A stretch of 64,000 nt of DNA. Source: Escherichia coli (GTDB lineage: Bacteria; Pseudomonadota; Gammaproteobacteria; Enterobacterales; Enterobacteriaceae). Below, piece by piece: positions 5,710 through 55,118 of the stretch. The stretch lies in NCBI RefSeq assembly GCF_044324875.1, contig NZ_CP172185.1; one strand, 5' to 3'. The notes beneath the pieces were generated by a model, which did not search any database, had not been told where the DNA came from, and worked only from the letters and a program-made list of their open reading frames with translations. A program made the position numbers and the translations under genes. How positions within the stretch are numbered: position 1 is the stretch's first letter; every line of letters starts with the position of its first letter.

Positions 5710-6813
5710 TCAGAACTGATAAGTCAAACCAACAGCGACAATATCATCGGTTAATACATCAGTTCTTTCAGTGAATTGATTCTTATCAAGCAGGTTGATT
5801 TTATAGTCTACGTATGTAGACATATTTTTGTTGAAGTAATAAGCAGCACCGACTTCAATGAATTTTTCAATGTATCCGTCATTATGTTTTTCAGGGATAC
5901 CAGTTTTGGTGGAAAGGTCTTTGGCTTTCGACTGGATATAAGCAAGAGACGGGCGCAAACCAAAGTCGAACTGATACTGTGCAACTACAGCGAAATCTTC
6001 AGTTTTATTGGCTACACCGTTGTAGCCGCCGGGCGAGTACTTGATTGCGCGGGTATTACGTGTTTCACCATAAGTGGCTGCCAGGTACAGATTATTCGCG
6101 TCATATTTTACGCTGGTAGCCCACTGTTCAGCTTTTTTACCTTTACCAAAAGTCGTCGCTTCCTGTGCATTGGTGCGATCGGCTGCACCATATGCAGCTA
6201 CAAAACCAAAGCCTTCATATTCATAACTGACAGAGCCGCCAACACCGTCGCCGTTTGAAGTGCCTGCATTGTCACGCTCATTTTTACCCAGATACTGAAC
6301 CGCAAAGTTCAGTCCATCAACCAGACCGAAGAAGTCGGTATTACGGTAAGTGGCAACACCACCTACACGACCCACGAAGAAGTTATCCCCGTTAACAGAA
6401 CCAGGCCCAAATTCAGGGAGGACATCAGTATAGCTTAATGCGTCATACACCACGCCATAGTTACGACCATAATCCAGAGAGCCAATATTTTCTAGTTTCA
6501 GGCCAGCGTATGCCAGACGGGTTTTGTCTCCTGCAGAGCCATCTTTTTCTGCCTTGTTGCCTTTGAATTCATATTCCCATTGACCAAAACCAGTTAACTG
6601 ATTGTTGATTTGGGTTTCACCTTTGAATCCAAGACGGGCATAAGTTCCATCACCTTCTTCTTTGGCGTTAGAAGAAAAGTAATGTTTACCCACTACTTTG
6701 CCATATAAATCCAGTTTATTACTGTTTTTATTATATATTTCTGCTGCATTTGCAGACATTGCCAGAAATACTGATGCTGCTACAGCAGAAAGTGCCACTG
6801 TTAAATTTTTCAT
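5710..6813 (-). CDS. Outer membrane porin (OmpC/NmpC family) moron
   Basis: Signal peptide [29 protein letters not shown], porin-type beta-strand composition, C-terminal aromatic residue; same position and orientation as nmpC in DLP12-type prophages. Confidence 0.85.
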
Positions 6814-7411: not shown

Positions 7412-7487
7412 GGCCCTTTAGCTCAGTGGTGAGAGCGAGCGACTCATAATCGCAAGGGCGCTGGTTCAAATTCAGCAAGGGCCACCA
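7412..7487 (+). tRNA. tRNA with anticodon CAU, ileX/ileZ-like (tRNA-Ile2 reading AUA, or Met)
   Basis: Cloverleaf folds by hand: acceptor GGCCCTT/AAGGGCC, D-arm GCTC..GAGC, anticodon loop CTCATAA, T-arm GCTGG-TTCAAAT-TCAGC, 3' CCA; close to recalled E. coli ileX. Confidence 0.85.
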
Positions 7488-7488
7488 A

Positions 7489-7565
7489 CCGCTACTAGCT
7501 CATCAGGAAAGAGCGTCAACCCTTTAAGTTGAGTGCGCTAGGTTCGATTCCCCGCTGGCGGTCCA
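7489..7565 (+). tRNA. tRNA-like element, probably degenerate (arg-tRNA-like architecture)
   Basis: Acceptor 6/7 bp, good D-arm and perfect anticodon stem, canonical T-loop TTCGATT, but T-stem has 2 mismatches and loop CCTTTAA lacks U33; ends CCA. Confidence 0.35.
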
Positions 7566-8409: not shown

Positions 8410-8787
8410 TTACGGGCCTGTGGGATCAGGTTGTTTTTTGTCTGATTCCAGAGGGAAGGGACGCTGTTTCGGTTCTCTGAACTTTAGTGATAATGAATTG
8501 AAAATCCTCATTTTTTGCTGCCATGCATAATGTCTGTCCCATGAACAGGGGGGGCTCAATTCTTCATTCACCCATGCGTTAATATCTTGTTTCAGGTGTT
8601 GAAGCATACGGGGTGTTAATGCACTCATAATAATATCCAGCGTTTTATGCGAGAGTTTACCGTAAGGGTCTGCAAGGATGCTGCTCGTTGCTTCGTTATT
8701 ATCCACCATAAGTGGAAGTAGCGCTGATTTAACTTTTTCTGTCATTAGTTGCAAAAATCTACTGCGCAAATTTTCTTTACTGTTCAT
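8410..8787 (-). CDS. Hypothetical protein (125 aa) on opposite strand between holin and endolysin
   Basis: Clean ORF in an otherwise plus-strand late operon; no recognised domain. Confidence 0.45.
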   Translation of the reverse strand: MNSKENLRSRFLQLMTEKVKSALLPLMVDNNEATSSILADPYGKLSHKTLDIIMSALTPRMLQHLKQDINAWVNEELSPPCSWDRHYAWQQKMRIFNSLSLKFREPKQRPFPLESDKKQPDPTGP

Positions 8788-8910
8788 TTCTGAAGCCTCA
8801 TCTGTTGTCGTTTGGTTTTCCTGAACGGGTATGTTTATGAGACATGCTGGTACTGGATTATATACCTGATATATCCAGGATTATAAACCTTTAGATCCTG
8901 ATAAATATAC

Positions 8911-9444
8911 ATGAACGCAAAAATCAGATACGGCCTGTCGGCTGCCGTTCTGGCGCTGATTGGTGCTGGCGCATCTGCTCCTCAGATACTTGATCAGTTT
9001 CTGGACGAAAAAGAGGGTAACCACACAACGGCATACCGCGATGGGTCCGGCATCTGGACCATCTGTCGGGGTGCCACGATGGTGGATGGAAAACCCGTTT
9101 TTCCCGGAATGAAGCTGTCGAAGGAAAAATGCGACCAGGTTAACGCTATTGAACGTGATAAGGCACTGGCATGGGTGGAGCGCAATATTAAAGTACCTCT
9201 GACCGAACCACAGAAAGCGGGTATTGCGTCATTCTGTCCCTATAACATTGGCCCCGGTAAGTGTTTCCCGTCGACGTTTTATAAGCGGCTTAATGCCGGT
9301 GATCGAAAAGGCGCCTGCGAGGCGATTCGCTGGTGGATAAAGGATGGTGGGCGTGACTGCCGTATCCGTTCAAATAACTGCTATGGACAGGTTATTCGTC
9401 GTGACCAGGAAAGCGCATTAGCCTGTTGGGGGATAGATCAGTGA
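8911..9444 (+). CDS. Endolysin, lysozyme with N-terminal signal-anchor-release (SAR) domain
   Basis: 177 aa; N-terminal hydrophobic [16 protein letters not shown]-x8-D-x5-T catalytic spacing ([16 protein letters not shown]). Confidence 0.85.
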
Positions 9445-9908
9445 GCAGAGTCGCCGCGATTATTTATGCTCTGGTTATCTGCATCATCGTCTGCCTGTCG
9501 TTGGCGGTCAATCATTACCGTGATAACGCCATAGCCTACAAAGAACAACGTGATAAAAAAGTCAGTGAGCTGAAGCAGGCGACCGCCACCATCGCTGACA
9601 TGCAGCAGCGTCAGCGTGATGTTGCTGCGCTCGATGCAAAATACACGAAGGAGTTAGCTGATGCGAAAGCTGAAAATGATGCTCTTCGGCGCAAGCTTGA
9701 TAATGGTGGCAGGGTGCTCGTCAAAGGAAAATGCCCTGTGCCATCCTCAGCCGAAACCTCCAGCGCCTCCGGCATGGGCAATGATGCCACCGTCGAACTC
9801 TCTCCAGTTGCTGGACGAAACGTTCTCGGTATCCGGGACGGAATTATCCGCGACCAGACAGCACTGAGAACGCTTCAGGAATACATCAGGACGCAATGCC
9901 TTCGATGA
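9441..9908 (+). CDS. Rz-like inner-membrane spanin (i-spanin)
   Basis: N-terminal TM segment [19 protein letters not shown] then coiled-coil-like region; probable GTG start overlapping endolysin stop. Confidence 0.65.
9661..9867 (+). CDS. Rz1-like outer-membrane lipoprotein spanin (o-spanin), embedded in Rz in +1 frame
   Basis: Lipobox MVAGCSS, proline-rich [11 protein letters not shown]; fully nested within Rz. Confidence 0.6.
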
Positions 9909-10082
9909 TAGCGATAATTTTACTCATCATCCTTCACATCTGGCTCTGTAGACAGGGTGGTGATCACTTCTGGAGTGAATCCAGATTAAACATCTCATTG
10001 CTGATGCTTGATATTGAGCATCTGGCGCGCGGTAAGGGGCTGCGTTGAGATAAGAGCCAGTCATTAAAAATACCTGGATTTA

Positions 10083-10108
10083 GCCTCGCATTCGCGGGGC
10101 TTTTTTAT
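10083..10108 (+). terminator. Rho-independent terminator downstream of Rz
   Basis: GCCTCGCATTCGCGGGGC hairpin followed by TTTTTTATT. Confidence 0.5.
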
Positions 10109-10540
10109 TGCCATTACAAAAGCCACTCCCTACAGAGTGGCTTTGATAATGGCTTATACCCTACACGGGATAACTTAACTGATATCCCTTTTAACGGATA
10201 AAGGTATTCAAGCCTGACACATCATGCGCTGTATCGTCGCTGTATTCCCGCATTAACCATGACCGTAGCCCGACGGGGAACTCCTTCTGCGCGAGTGTGC
10301 GGGAATAATCAAAAACGATGCACACCGGGTTTTTACCGCGCTAATGATTCGCGGGTTTGTCCCTCATGCTCGCCAGTCCGGTGCGATGGTGGAAGAAACC
10401 GGAAGCTGTATTACAGAAAGTGCTACTACTGTATCCTGATGCGATGTATGTAATGTGAGTCAGATAATGGCACAGGATGTGGTGATGTGGCAGTCTGGAA
10501 CACAGGATATATTGTCAGAATAAGACCCGTAGGAATAAAA

Positions 10541-10867
10541 ATGAAAAGACGCCTTTCACTACTTTTTCTGTTATCTGCCCTGGCAGTGGGATGCTCGCAG
10601 CAAAAAGCTGATGAGCCCCGGCAATTAGTGACGGTGTATCCACGATATCCGGAATATGCTGCAGCAAATTATATCAAGGGGCTGGTTGAGGTTAAGTTCG
10701 ATATTGGTGCTGACGGGACTGTGACACGGATCGTTTTTCTCCGCTCAGAGCCTCATAATTTGTTTCGTGATGAAGTGGTGAAGGCCATGGCGAAATGGAG
10801 ATTTGAAAAGAATAGTCCCCGTCAGGGAGTGAAGAGACAATTTATCTTTACGCCATCACGTCCCTGA
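10541..10867 (+). CDS. Lipoprotein with TonB C-terminal-like domain (moron)
   Basis: Signal/lipobox MKRRLSLLFLLSALAVGC; C-terminal region GLVEVKFDIGADGTVTRIVFLRSEPHNLFRDEVVKAMAKWRFE matches the TonB C-terminal pattern (compare E. coli TonB GQVKVKFDVTPDGRVDNVQIL...FEREVKNAMRRWRYE). Confidence 0.6.
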   Translation: MKRRLSLLFLLSALAVGCSQQKADEPRQLVTVYPRYPEYAAANYIKGLVEVKFDIGADGTVTRIVFLRSEPHNLFRDEVVKAMAKWRFEKNSPRQGVKRQFIFTPSRP

Positions 10868-11231
10868 TGCTTCCAGGTAGAGAGGGGCTGGAAGCAGGAG
10901 AAAAATGAAAGAGCCAGCGGTTATATTTTTGTCATGGCTGACGAGAAATGATGGAAGAAGGCGTTGTATGCCACACAACGCCTCACTGTTCATTTCTTCT
11001 TTTTCTCTGGTGTAACCCGATGAATAAGAGTTGCACTGGTTTCCGATGAGATGGCGATATGCTCGGGCAAAGTATGCTGGCAGTTTTCCAACTGGTCAAA
11101 AATACCTGCTCTCGTCTGTTGCAATGCCTGCAGCATGCGGCGGCAATGCGCCTTTGCTTTTGCTAACCATCTTTCCTTACTCTATCAGTCGCTGCGTGAA
11201 CTCATCATGGAATACCAGGTAAATGCGGATG

Positions 11232-11483
11232 TTATCGGTTTTGGCTACGCAGCATAGTACAAAACGGACAGGTGCATCCCGGAATGGGGGAGGCGTCACA
11301 TGTCCCTGTGATGGTTGTTCCGGGTAATGCACTGTGTGGGGCATAAAAATGTCCGATAATTTTACTTTCTACCGCAGTTAGTTGATTCGTTGGTCCTGGT
11401 AGCACATTGGGCGAGGGTTTAAATGCCAGGCAACTGAAGGATGATGTTGCAAGGGAGATAGCGAGAATATTTCTGATTTTCAT
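11232..11483 (-). CDS. Small secreted Cys-rich protein (83 aa), opposite strand
   Basis: Signal peptide MKIRNILAISLATSSFSCLA; convergent with upstream lipoprotein gene; function unknown. Confidence 0.4.
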   Translation of the reverse strand: MKIRNILAISLATSSFSCLAFKPSPNVLPGPTNQLTAVESKIIGHFYAPHSALPGTTITGTCDASPIPGCTCPFCTMLRSQNR

Positions 11484-11634
11484 TTGATGATGCCTCTGTG
11501 TGAAATGACGGTAAACGACGCACTTGTGCCGGCACATAATAGCAAGCATCAGAATAGATCAGATTCGATTCTTGCTGTAAGTGATAATTATTCTCGTTTT
11601 TTTCGGGTCCTTTCCGGCGATCCAACAGGTTACG

Positions 11635-11646
11635 GGGCGTCGACCT
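11635..11646 (+). other. cosN-like cohesive-end site
   Basis: ACGGGGCGTCGACCTCGCG differs at one base from recalled lambda cos ACGGGGCGGCGACCTCGCG; about 190 bp upstream of Nu1. Confidence 0.5.
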
Positions 11647-11838
11647 CGCGCAAAACAACTCCTTATGAAATTTTTACGGGAAATTCAGATCCGTTCTTCT
11701 TTCTTGTAAGTCATTGTGTATATTGAATTTTATTTGTTCTGAGAAAGGATCTGATAAGGCTTCGTTTCGCCTGAAAAGGCAGTTTTAAGATCCTTTCTTA
11801 AAAAAACGGGTCATTTTCTTGCTGGAGGGGATGCTGGT

Positions 11839-12387
11839 GTGAGGGTTAACAAGAAAAAGCTGGCTGAGATTTTTGATGTTGATGTGCGGACTATATCCAC
11901 CTGGCAAAATCAGGGGCTGCCGCTGATATCAGGCGGCGGGAAAGGGAATGAAGCGATTTTTGATACGGGAAAAGCGATTGAGTGGTTCGCTCAGCGTGAG
12001 GCCGACATTGAAAATGAAAAACTTCGTAAGGAAGTCGACGATATGCGCGTGGCTGCTGAGTCGGATCTGCAGCCCGGTACGATTGATTACGAACGCTACC
12101 GTCTCACAAAAGCACAGGCAGATGCGCAGGAACTGAAAAATGCTCGTGAGGAAGGGCTGGTTCTTGAAACGGAATTATTTACCTACATTTTTCAGCGAGT
12201 TGCGCAGAATATATCCGGGATCCTTGTTCGTGTTCCGCAGACACTGCAGCGTAAATACCCTGATATATCACCAGCACATCTTGATGCTGTGAAAACTGAA
12301 ATCGCGAAAGCATCCGATGTGGCTTCTGAATCAGGTGAGAATGTGTGCAGGTGGATTGATGATTTCAGACGAGCTGAGGGCGGCTAA
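11839..12387 (+). CDS. nu1: Terminase small subunit (lambda Nu1-like)
   Basis: [41 protein letters not shown] closely parallels lambda Nu1 N-terminus; GTG start. Confidence 0.85.
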
Positions 12388-14287
12388 CTCTACAGGAGCG
12401 ATAACGACTGGTCTCCTTGCGCTAAAAATTCCTGTACCCCTGACGACAGTTCAGTGGGCAGATCAACATTATTACCTGCCGAAAGAGTCGTCTTACACAC
12501 CAGGGCGGTGGGAAACATTGCCGTTTCAGGTTGCCATAATGAACAGTATGGGTAATGACCTGATCCGCACTGTTAATCTGATTAAATCTGCCCGTGTTGG
12601 TTATACAAAAATGCTGTTGGGAGTGGAGGCTTATTTTATTGAGCATAAATCCCGCAACAGTCTGCTTTTTCAGCCCACGGACTCAGCTGCTGAAGATTTT
12701 ATGAAATCTCATGTTGAGCCAACGATAAGGGATGTTCCTGCATTGCTGGAGCTGGCTCCATGGTTCGGAAGAAAACACCGCGATAATACGCTCACCCTGA
12801 AGCGTTTTTCCTCCGGTGTGGGGTTCTGGTGTCTGGGTGGTGCGGCAGCAAAAAATTACCGTGAAAAATCCGTGGATGTGGTCTGTTATGACGAGCTTTC
12901 CTCGTTCGAACCGGATGTTGAAAAAGAGGGCTCGCCAACCCTGCTGGGGGATAAGCGTATTGAGGGCTCTGTATGGCCAAAATCCATTCGCGGCTCGACG
13001 CCTAAAATCAAAGGCTCCTGCCAGATCGAAAAAGCCGCTAACGAGTCGGCACATTTCATGCGTTTTTATGTGCCCTGCCCGCACTGTGGGGAGGAGCAGT
13101 ATCTGAAATTTGGTGATGATGCCTCGCCTTTCGGTCTTAAGTGGGAGAAGGACAGCCCCGAAAGCGTTTTCTACCTTTGTGAGCATCATGGCTGTGTGAT
13201 CCATCAGTCTGAGCTTGACCAGAGTAACGGGCGGTGGATCTGTGAAAACACGGGGATGTGGACCCGTGACGGCCTGATGTTTTTCAGCGCCCGGGGTGAT
13301 GAAATTCCGCCGCCGCGCTCCATCACTTTCCATATCTGGACGGCGTACAGTCCGTTCACCACCTGGGTACAGATAGTCTATGACTGGCTGGATGCACTGA
13401 AAGATCCCAACGGCCTGAAAACCTTTGTGAACACCACGCTGGGCGAGACCTGGGAAGAGGCCGTGGGCGAAAAACTCGATCACCAGGTACTGATGGATAA
13501 GGTTGTGCGTTACACGGCGGCGGTGCCTGCCCGGGTGGTTTATCTGACGGCGGGCATTGACTCGCAGCGAAACCGTTTTGAGATGTATGTCTGGGGATGG
13601 GCTCCGGGAGAGGAAGCCTTTCTGGTGGATAAAATCATTATTATGGGGCGTCCCGATGAGGAAGAGACGCTGTTACGTGTGGATGCAGCGATCAACAAAA
13701 AATACTGCCATGCAGACGGAACCGAAATGACCATTTCCCGTGTCTGCTGGGACATCGGGGGGATCGATGGAGAAATCGTTTATCAGAGGTCAAAAAAACA
13801 CGGTGTTTTCCGGGTGCTGCCGGTAAAAGGCGCATCTGTCTATGGCAAGCCGGTGATCACCATGCCAAAAACCCGCAATCAGCGGGGCGTGTATCTGTGT
13901 GAAGTGGGCACGGACACCGCAAAAGAAATTCTCTATGCCCGTATGAAAGCCGCTCCCACGCCTGCGGATGAATCCACGTCGTATGCCATCCGTTTTCCTG
14001 ATGATCCGGAGATTTTTTCGCAGACAGAGGCGCAGCAACTGGTCGCGGAAGAGCTTGTGGAGAAGTGGGAAAAAGGAAAGATGCGTCTGCTGTGGGATAA
14101 CAAAAAGCGGCGTAACGAAGCGCTGGACTGCCTGGTGTATGCCTACGCGGCATTACGTGTGTCCGTGCAACGCTGGCAGCTTGATCTGGCTGTACTGGCA
14201 AAATCCCGGGAAGAAGAGACGACCCGGCCAACCCTTAAAGAACTGGCAGCGAAGCTGTCCGGAGGAGTGAATGGTTACAGTCGCTGA
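12359..14287 (+). CDS. A: Terminase large subunit (lambda gpA-like)
   Basis: Collinear with lambda A ([39 protein letters not shown]); start chosen by alignment (ORF track begins 12317). Confidence 0.9.
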
Positions 14288-54078: not shown

Positions 54079-54510
54079 ATATTCATCCCTGAAATGTATT
54101 AATGAAATAAACGATATTTTACGCGCAATAAATGTTTGCCGCATTAGTTGTTTGAGCGAAAAATATCTGGAAAGCAGATCACAGTACATAAAAAAACCTG
54201 CTGGTGAGGCAGGTTCTTTTATTTACTATTTTCAGGCCCAACACCGCAGCCTGTGCAACATCGTGTTCCAACGAACGAATTATAACCATCGGTGGACCCC
54301 GTTGCAATTAAGATAATGAGATTTATAATCCAGACGGTTGGGACGTTGCGCCGGATCGGACCAATTTTAAGTCCTGGCTACCGGACGGGTGGTGCTGCAG
54401 GTGGTGCCCTGATCCGGAGTGCAACATCGTGGTCCAACATACGTAAACCAGTATCGACAGGCAGTGTAAGGGTAAGGTGCTGGTGTTGCGCTCCTTAATA
54501 AGGAGAGCGA

Positions 54511-54600: not shown

Positions 54601-55118
54601 CGGGCAAATTGAAACGCATCTAAGGGGGAAAACCGCTTCCCCCTTTAATAAAATGATTACTGTTTTTATTAATTCATCATATAACTCATTTTTATTTATA
54701 AATTCATCGATTTTATATTCAACGTACCGTTTAACCGGGATGTGAATATTTATGGTGGGCTATTGGCAAAAAATATCTGGAAAGTAGATCGCAGAAAATA
54801 AAAAAACCTGCTGGTGAGGCAGGTTCTTTTATTTACTACTTTGATGTTAAGTTACTGATAGTGCAACATGGCATCTCAACGAACGAATTATAACCACCTC
54901 TGGACAGTGTTGCAATTAAGATAATGAGATTTATAATCCTGACTGTTGGGAAGTTGCGCCGGATCGAACCCATTTCAAGTCCTGGCTACCGGACGGGTGG
55001 TGCCGCAGGTAGTGCTCTGATCCGGAGTGCAACATGGCGACTCAACATACGTAAACCAGTATCGACAGGCAGCGTAAGGGTAAGGTGCTGGTGTTGCGCT
55101 CCTTAATAAGGAGAGCGG

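Follow-up and report, generated by a model that had tools for sequence, protein, structure and literature searches.

Conserved, probably structured RNA modules at the lysis-to-packaging junction of lambdoid prophages in Escherichia coli

Introduction

What fills the space between the lysis genes and the packaging genes of a lambdoid prophage, and does any of it act as RNA? The question is raised by positions 9909–10540 of a stretch of 64,000 nucleotides from Escherichia coli (contig NZ_CP172185.1, assembly GCF_044324875.1), here called the window, which is a lambdoid prophage. The genes for Q, holin, lysozyme, Rz, Nu1 and terminase are all encoded on the + strand. Late transcription under Q thus has this strand as its sense strand, and the interval is the lysis-to-packaging junction of this late operon, a mosaic made up of several loci rather than one. 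In a preliminary description made from the letters of the window it had been treated as a non-coding gap with two hairpins, possibly holding a small RNA or a regulatory element for the lipoprotein gene downstream.

The interval is not one featureless 630-bp gap. A strongly conserved block is revealed by the conservation along it, at 10110–10405, and this block holds a stem-loop, SL2, and an element of about 185 nucleotides, E, both of which are very probably RNA structures maintained by selection on the + strand. The reading we favour, with a probability of about one half, is that of a lysis-to-packaging junction comprising a small open reading frame (ORF), a terminator (T1), SL2 and E, in which SL2 and E act in cis on the processing or stability of the late transcript.

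Results

Base pairing in E and SL2

The fold of E was derived with RNAalifold from 48 representatives, clustered at <96% identity and then de-duplicated. A long-range stem, P1 (GUAUCGU/ACGAUGC, 10231–10237 / 10315–10321), is stacked with P2 (10243–10253 / 10297–10307, UAUUCCCGCAU/GUGCGGGAAUA, and UAUUCCCGG/CCGGGAAUA in lambda) around an internal domain of ~43 nucleotides. The 3' arms of P2 and P1 are joined by an A-rich linker, AUCAAAA, and an invariant ACACCGGG follows. Positions 10336–10354 form a hairpin in every phage type, its sequence varying by type, and P6 (10377–10382 / 10398–10403, GUCCGGU/ACCGGAC) closes a loop of 15 nucleotides with a conserved GGAAGAAA. Conservation rises and drops abruptly at the two edges of E. 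A 21-nucleotide inverted repeat with 81% complementarity brackets the element (10204–10224 and 10483–10503); it is probably a chance match, since its arms belong to different mosaic modules, the left of Stx/mEp460 type and the right of phage 21 type.

Among the 48 representatives 97.8% of the alignment cells in the stems hold standard pairs, compared to 30–61% in controls with slid partners, and nine pairs are changed on both sides, compared to two to five in the same controls. The Salmonella phage S135, obtained later and unused in deriving the structure, served as a held-out sequence. At an overall divergence of 27%, it retains 24 of the 25 pairs of P1, P2 and P6 as standard pairs; all six of the pairs changed on both sides are still Watson-Crick, and one-sided changes are confined to two pairs where about ten are predicted under independence. 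E hence displays compensatory change on a held-out sequence, the generic mark of a conserved structured RNA.

The second hairpin of the preliminary description, to which a 9-bp stem had been assigned, is real but was drawn too small. That stem (10120–10128 / 10135–10143) is the core of an inverted repeat with arms of 19 nucleotides (10110–10128 / 10135–10153), interrupted by a CA/GA internal loop and capped by the hexaloop CCUACA. The fold of SL2 has an energy of −20.2 kcal/mol (z = −7.1), and none of 200 shuffles was equally stable. Standard pairs occupy 98% of the cells across 15 distinct variants, compared to 30–49% when the 3' partner is slid by one to three columns, and 5 of the 17 pairs are double-changed (22 cells). 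There are at least four stem alleles (those of the window, Stx1717, 2B8 and F1022), exemplified by AAAGCCACUC/GAGUGGCUUU, AAGCCCAUC/GGUGGGCUU and GAGACCAUUC/GAGUGGUCUC; the outer stem covaries as well (GCCAUUA/UAAUGGC versus GUUAUUG/CAAUGGC), and the CA/GA internal loop is present in every allele but one. The conserved non-coding block is bounded on the left by SL2, and a mosaic breakpoint falls precisely at 10110. In Stx-type and other phages SL2 often starts 0–10 nucleotides past the stop of the preceding gene with no terminator between, a placement that is as expected of a hairpin at the end of a transcript segment.

No U-tract follows SL2 on the + strand, where the tail is UUAUACCC after the full stem and GAUAAUGG after the inner stem, and the terminator scan was silent there. 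The GenBank record of phage Ayreon labels SL2 (locus L001, 1701–1746, corresponding to window ~10109–10154), and not hairpin 1, as a 'terminator', on a strand lacking a U-tract at that site.

Strand and coding potential

When only one side of a pair has changed, the + strand is strongly favoured by the kind of change: 271 G-U cells versus 10 A-C cells in E, and 25 versus 2 in SL2. Three pairs are G-U in ≥90% of the sequences. Read on the − strand, standard pairs fall to 82% in E (97.8% on the + strand) and to 89% in SL2 (98%). When the reverse-complemented alignments were refolded afresh with RNAalifold, the consensus energies on the + and − strands were −30.2 versus −13.2 and −31.0 versus −20.4 for E, and −25.9 versus −10.0 for SL2. 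In the Sakai prophage Sp10, and by position in Sp9 and Sp12, transcription of a leftward ylcI-like gene ends at a terminator of that gene, adjoining E but not extending into it. From the G-U bias, the fold energies and this leftward terminator we infer that the functional molecule is the late-sense RNA, and the preliminary suspicion of a functional RNA in the interval is in this respect supported by conserved, covarying and strand-specific structure in SL2 and E.

It is accordingly very unlikely that function resides on the opposite strand, with SL2 ending leftward transcripts and E being the 3' region or terminator zone of ybcV, ylcI and bor. On the − strand SL2 does fold well (−22.2 kcal/mol) and is followed by UUUUGUAAU, the Ayreon record speaks of a terminator, and in lambda and in DLP12 of K-12 E is situated between the leftward genes p78/ybcV and bor. 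The best sigma-70-like site of the region also lies on this strand. Yet the G-U pairs become A-C mismatches there and the consensus folds are weaker. A stem with a U-tract conserved on the − strand was not found for SL2: UUUUGU occurs 3' of the inner stem in the window allele only, and the Stx-type allele has one mismatch and just a U3 tract. The leftward gene in Sakai is terminated before E, and E is found in many contexts without any leftward gene. The sigma-70-like site itself (10695–10668, −; TTAACC-16-TATAAT with an upstream TG, 10/12 matches) is located inside the TonB_C gene, and a promoter at this consensus match would drive an antisense RNA leftwards over E towards SL2.

That the conserved block encodes a protein is extremely improbable, even if annotations of this kind exist: a 58-amino-acid ORF on the − strand given by the NCBI annotation pipeline (PGAP), CPT_21_72 in phage 21, gp76 of phage ST2-8624 ('Rz-like spanin') and a match to phrog_6954 at 6e-8. 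All six frames were checked across 85 variants of E. The best frame, on the + strand, is open in 35 of these, and the other 50 have stops at several positions. There is no conserved start codon over E, the indels measure 1, 11 and 17 nucleotides and are thus not multiples of three, the PGAP ORF is interrupted in the window, and different records place their ORFs over E on different strands and in different frames. Labels of 'Rz-like spanin' (ST2-8624, locus L242, 1835–2038; phrog_6954; phrog_1267) are attached to an ORF within E and to the TonB_C lipoprotein family. These labels seem to have been propagated from the position beside Rz and not from homology to spanins, and those over E, like several database ORFs there, are probably misannotations.

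Distribution, neighbours and mosaic structure

E was found in 432 of 50,697 phage records, including lambda, 434, 21, mEp460, phages of the Stx1, Stx2 and Stx2c types, Shigella phages and a few Salmonella phages. Among complete E. coli genomes, 4591 of 5426 harbour it. The matches total 11,769, and a genome has a median of 2 copies and at most 11. Matches on plasmids number 696 of the 11,769; both plasmid ones among the matches listed are partial, and such matches may be phage-plasmids or fragments. A pattern scan of bacteria at large, with one genome per species, gave five hits, in Escherichia and in three others (two metagenome-assembled genomes and a Thiomicrorhabdus contig), and these three may be contamination.

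In each of the 182 loci compared, E and Rz point the same way. On its left are found Rz, orf50, the leftward Bor, or Rha or KilA-N genes, and on its right mEp460_059-like genes, the leftward YbcV or YlcI, TonB_C, HNH or Nu1; in the 933W-like phage ST2-8624 the terminase gene begins ~110 nucleotides downstream. SL2 and E are separable modules, kept at this junction in lambda, 434, 21, Stx phages and many E. coli phages whatever flanks them.

These neighbours bear directly on the suggestion that the hairpins regulate the TonB_C lipoprotein gene, a moron, or serve as its specific 5' untranslated region. In the window the hairpins do stand directly upstream of the gene, and positions 10406–10540 travel with it in phage 21. 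The gene follows E in only ~25 of the 182 loci, and T1, SL2 and E mostly occur without it; lambda, 434, mEp460 and Stx phages all carry E in its absence, and phage 21 has the gene together with E while lacking T1 and SL2. E thus marks the late operon regardless of its neighbours and is not the regulator of that moron, and the suggestion is highly improbable.

No phage record covers as much as 80% of the interval, and its parts are shared with different relatives: 9909–10403 with mEp460, Ayreon and their relatives; 10225–11634 with phage 21, at 96% identity; 10110–~10410 with Stx phages, 2B8 and JLK-2012; and 10225–10332 by BLAST, or the whole of 10225–10405 by alignment, with lambda and DLP12. 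In lambda E is located at 46868–~47055, between bor and lambdap78. Mosaic breakpoints recur at 9909, 10082, 10110, 10202, 10225, 10332 and 10403, delimiting as modules orf50, T1, SL2 with ~70 nucleotides, E, and the 135 nucleotides that accompany the TonB_C gene. E. coli F1022 (locus L005, 1228–1515) has an SL2 allele of divergent sequence, separated from T1 by the exact insertion of an ORF of 95 codons, and the boundary of T1 and SL2 (10109/10110) is therefore a point of moron insertion.

Breakpoints that cluster at the block edges, a narrow host range and high identity are what would be seen if termination by T1 were the only function and SL2 and E were linkers persisting through homologous recombination among lambdoid phages. 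Recombination, though, requires sequence identity and not pairing, and yet the stems change on both sides and stay paired, the single-sided changes are nearly all G-U on one strand, and S135 preserves its pairs in spite of its divergence. We consider such passive linkers to be decidedly unlikely.

Search for known and trans-acting RNAs

Identification of a known small RNA (sRNA) family by covariance models, proposed in the preliminary description as a check, gave no such family. With Rfam 15 at a permissive E-value over 8500–12500, the best matches were STnc560 (RF01407) with 22.7 bits and AbsR28 (RF02606) with 21.3 bits (E = 0.09 and 0.12), where the gathering scores are 55 and 50. Both are weak cmscan alignments over T1 and SL2 in which the aligned part is a generic terminator hairpin, and the interval is a member of neither family. 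At the gathering threshold the whole window yielded only OrzO-P and tRNAs, outside the interval, and the Sakai copies of E yielded nothing. The Rfam models of AgvB, AsxR and Esr41 had no match to the window. PGAP, which uses Rfam, gives 'none' or 'hypothetical protein' over E. A search of the literature for a borD-ybcV sRNA, for RNase III processing of the late transcript and for phage structured-RNA surveys found no description of E. AgvB/AsxR, the Pas sRNAs, and LPR1/PreS, LPR2 and 6S of lambda were considered as candidates and rejected, being located near pR'/Q or in the early left operon and not at E.

A false lead came from Sakai. EcOnc10, EcOnc11 and EcOnc12 are Hfq crosslinking peaks in the Rz-terminase spacer of Sp12, Sp10 and Sp9 (Tree et al. 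2014, PMC4104026), and EcOnc11 falls within E if its published coordinates are read in the current RefSeq sequence of Sakai. When AgvB was placed by Rfam, the published table (PMC4104026, Table S2) proved to be ~140 nucleotides below current coordinates. At its corrected position EcOnc11 is a − strand terminator, ACUGCUGUG...CACGGCAGU-U7, which belongs to the ylcI-like gene and lies just right of E, and the peak was rejected as a sign of E expression; the strand listed for it runs antisense to the late operon, in agreement with the correction, and EcOnc10 after the same offset lies immediately 3' of the ylcI-like gene in Sp12. EcOnc10-12 (in Sp10, locus L251, ~5948–6008; also L252 and L253) mark where the ylcI-like genes ECs_1967, ECs_1788 and ECs_2255 end, at the terminator or 3' end of each. 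After correction none of these Hfq peaks is on E, in data from uninduced cultures, where late operons are silent.

The principal rival to a cis-acting junction is a trans-acting RNA: E, alone or together with SL2, would be cut out of the late transcript or transcribed from its own promoter, and would work by pairing with targets as an sRNA, by sponging a host sRNA or by binding a protein. E is indeed discrete, with sharp borders and independence of its neighbours, and it has conserved unpaired stretches in the A-rich linker, which fits Hfq A-R-N motifs, in ACACCGGG and in the GGAAGAAA loop. Many sRNAs bound by Hfq are encoded in lambdoid prophages (PMC4104026), and sRNAs of the lambda late operon exist in LPR2 and 6S (bioRxiv 10.1101/2024.10.31.621285). 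Against this, the + strand has no sigma-70 consensus in 9400–11900, and the sequence upstream of E varies between phages, so that a promoter is not conserved. The 3' end of E lacks a terminator hairpin with a U-tail, P6 being followed in most variants by variable, mostly non-U sequence. E is missing from the corrected Sakai peaks of Hfq (crosslinking and analysis of cDNA, CRAC) and from the lambda sRNAs detected by RIL-seq, and the complementarity of its conserved loops to the rest of the window is limited to 9-mers at chance level. With neither such a promoter nor such a 3' hairpin, nor an Rfam family at threshold, the interval does not read as an sRNA gene, and we judge a trans-acting RNA to be unlikely.

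It is possible, if rather doubtful, that E represents an undescribed phage family of structured RNA with a specific job, or a processed non-coding RNA acting on the host during lytic growth, with SL2 as its associated processing hairpin. Such a family would include lambda and nearly every Stx phage. The job could be that of a protein- or ligand-binding domain, or of a signal for processing by which the expression of lysis genes relative to head genes is set in ratio or in time.

Terminator T1 and the small ORF orf50

The terminator-like hairpin with a T-run that had been noticed previously is borne out. T1 has a stem AGCCUCGC/GCGGGGCU (10082–10089 / 10094–10101; six of eight pairs G-C) and the loop AUUC, within the G+C-rich, 5–14 bp, short-loop form of intrinsic terminators, and its tail UUUUUUAUU (10101–10109) supplies the U-tract. 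The fold has an energy of −14.1 kcal/mol (z = −3.1), and 4 of 200 shuffles were equally stable. In 9400–11900 three terminator-like sites were found where 2.4 ± 1.5 are expected by chance, that is, no excess; the pattern alone is not rare, and the credibility of T1 therefore rests on its position, 33 nucleotides past an ORF stop, and on its conservation. T1 and SL2 are retained as a unit in phages without orf50, in which T1 comes directly after Rz, and at one locus (L017) another stem with the identical T-run occupies the T1 position. On this sequence evidence T1 is a textbook predicted intrinsic terminator closing the lysis cassette.

The statement that the interval has no convincing ORF was partly right. 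The remaining ORFs of the interval are not conserved across copies, but orf50 is annotated both by PGAP and in phage records, and its frame is open in all 84 alignable copies. Its ATG stands 13 nucleotides before the end of Rz, so that it overlaps the Rz stop, and its product would have a hydrophobic N-terminal stretch. The variable sites are distributed over the three codon positions as 9/6/15, a modest third-position excess, and of the changes 10 are synonymous and 22 non-synonymous, with an expected synonymous share of 22%. Homologues are restricted to E. coli, nearly all at ≥80% identity, with no distant ones. orf50 may be a real small membrane protein, for which the coding evidence is weak.

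Layout of the interval and context in the window

The features of the junction are collected in Table 1. The lysis cassette ends with Rz, which anchors the junction on its left. On the + strand Rz is preceded by replication genes, RusA, the antiterminator Q, two tRNA genes, holin and lysozyme, and the interval is followed by the TonB_C lipoprotein gene, Nu1, the large terminase subunit and the head and tail genes. The weak hairpin SL3 is kept within a conserved block (10110–10224) where variation is too low for a covariation test. The homologue of the TonB_C gene in phage 21 is CPT_21_73.

Table 1. Features of the lysis-to-packaging junction and flanking genes (positions in the window)
Feature	Position	Strand	Remarks
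Lysozyme gene	8911–9444	+	Lysis cassette
Rz (i-spanin)	9441–9908	+	Pfam Phage_lysis 4e-31; PGAP 'lysis protein' in near-identical genomes
Rz1	9661–9867	+	Embedded in Rz
orf50	9896–10048	+	50 codons; phrog_11822 3.9e-38; PGAP WP_001139680.1
T1 (hairpin 1), predicted intrinsic (Rho-independent) terminator	10082–10109	+	8-bp stem, 4-nucleotide loop, U6AUU tail
SL2 (hairpin 2), conserved stem-loop	10110–10153	+	7 bp + 2x2 internal loop + 10 bp + hexaloop
SL3, weak 6-bp hairpin GGGAUA/UAUCCC, then UUUU	10167–10192	+	Minimum free energy and centroid folds
E, ~185-nucleotide conserved element, very probably structured RNA	10225–10405	+	Sharp conservation edges, covariation
TonB_C upstream region with Shine-Dalgarno	10406–10540	+	Right-hand module common with phage 21
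TonB C-terminal-domain lipoprotein gene ('moron')	10541–10867	+	Pfam TonB_C 2.6e-13; PGAP 'TonB family protein'; lipobox LAVGC
Nu1	11839–12387	+	Packaging

Elsewhere in the window, the two tRNA genes (7412–7487 and 7489–7565, +) are situated between a leftward porin gene and holin. ARAGORN identifies them as tRNA-Met(CAT) and tRNA-Lys(TTT), the second scoring only 31 bits in Rfam, whereas the annotation of a close relative gives tRNAs for Ile, Arg and Thr here. Two OrzO-P RNAs in tandem, antitoxins of type I (54190–54265 and 54800–54873, both −; Rfam RF02083, 101 and 92 bits), point to a zor-orz toxin-antitoxin pair in the distal window.

Discussion

If SL2 and E act in cis, the junction may work as follows. 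In the lysogen T1 would halt stray rightward transcription that is not antiterminated and keep it from the downstream genes. During lytic growth the Q-modified polymerase would pass T1, and SL2 and E would thereby join the late mRNA of ~25 kb. SL2 could then be a hairpin of the RNase III type, or one that blocks 3' exonucleases, at the end of the lysis segment. Morons in the spacer often point leftwards, for which reason the spacer at E would be untranslated on the + strand and otherwise exposed to RNase E; E, as a compact domain closed by a long-range stem, might protect or punctuate it ahead of the packaging and head genes. Together SL2 and E would uncouple the fate of the lysis mRNA from that of the morphogenetic mRNA. 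Any one particular mechanism of processing or stability, suggested as it is by anatomy, is put forward tentatively and at somewhat less than even odds.

Several observations weigh against a cis-acting junction, or against the structures on which it is built. Most copies of E are 80–99% identical and the covariation is carried by few lineages; the sequences used to derive the structure were of the same kind as those in which its pairs were counted; and recombination that swaps whole hairpin alleles may inflate the cell counts. An all-against-all scan for covarying columns was disregarded since clade structure yields many spurious pairs, and the same caveat applies to the raw cell counts, so that support for the structure was taken from helix-level counts, slid controls, the held-out Salmonella sequence and the comparison of strands. 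The range of E is narrow, covering Escherichia and Shigella plus a few Salmonella phages. Lambda has E without SL2 or T1, and the parts need not cooperate. The cis mechanism is read from anatomy alone, and RNase III sites are not reliably predictable from sequence. The region from Rz to cos in lambda is not known to be essential.

The two hairpins by themselves are ordinary. E is of more interest, being very widespread, apparently undescribed and present in lambda itself. Its kind is known, namely that of a cis-acting structured RNA in a polycistronic phage transcript, while E as such is in neither Rfam nor the searchable literature. It has no RNA annotation, although ~85% of complete E. coli genomes contain it, many of them more than once. 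If functional, E would add a regulatory layer to one of the best-studied phages and bear on the division of the ~25-kb late transcript into lysis and morphogenetic parts and, in Stx phages, on events downstream of the expression of toxin and lysis genes. Lambda genetics could test E directly.

Parts of the junction resemble systems that are already known. T1 is like the terminators of lambdoid late operons that Q-modified polymerase passes, such as tR', in having a G+C-rich 8-bp stem, a short loop and a U-tract after an ORF on the late strand. Terminators of the tR' type are positioned in the pR' leader, whereas T1 is located in mid-operon, after the lysis genes. RNase III processing hairpins are found in the polycistronic mRNAs of phages, as in the R1.1-type sites of T7 and in sib and the N-leader sites of lambda. 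SL2 is like them in anatomy only, as an irregular helix equivalent to ~19 bp with an internal loop, placed between segments and after a stop codon; its 17 bp and 2x2 internal loop make 19 stacked positions, a length compatible with RNase III but not diagnostic. The T7 sites have larger, asymmetric loops where that of SL2 is a symmetric 2x2, and there is no similarity in sequence. The put RNAs of HK022 are two stem-loops of ~30 nucleotides just downstream of the early promoters, which act in cis in the nascent transcript. They share with E the property of being conserved structures in lambdoid transcripts, E differing as a late-operon element of ~185 nucleotides with long-range stems in phages that use Q.

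The Hfq-associated sRNAs of enterohaemorrhagic E. coli prophages (AgvB, AsxR and EcOnc10-12; PMC4104026) come from the same prophages and the same late region as E. AgvB and AsxR are near pR', upstream of the lysis genes, and EcOnc10-12 adjoin E in the Rz-terminase region as a terminator of the opposite strand. The literature on modular evolution (for example Juhala et al. 2000, cited in PMC4104026) describes conserved boundary or linker sequences where modules of lambdoid phages meet, and they are, like SL2 and E, short conserved non-coding blocks at mosaic breakpoints. Such linkers are defined by sequence identity, and SL2 and E in addition keep their base pairing on one strand by compensatory change.

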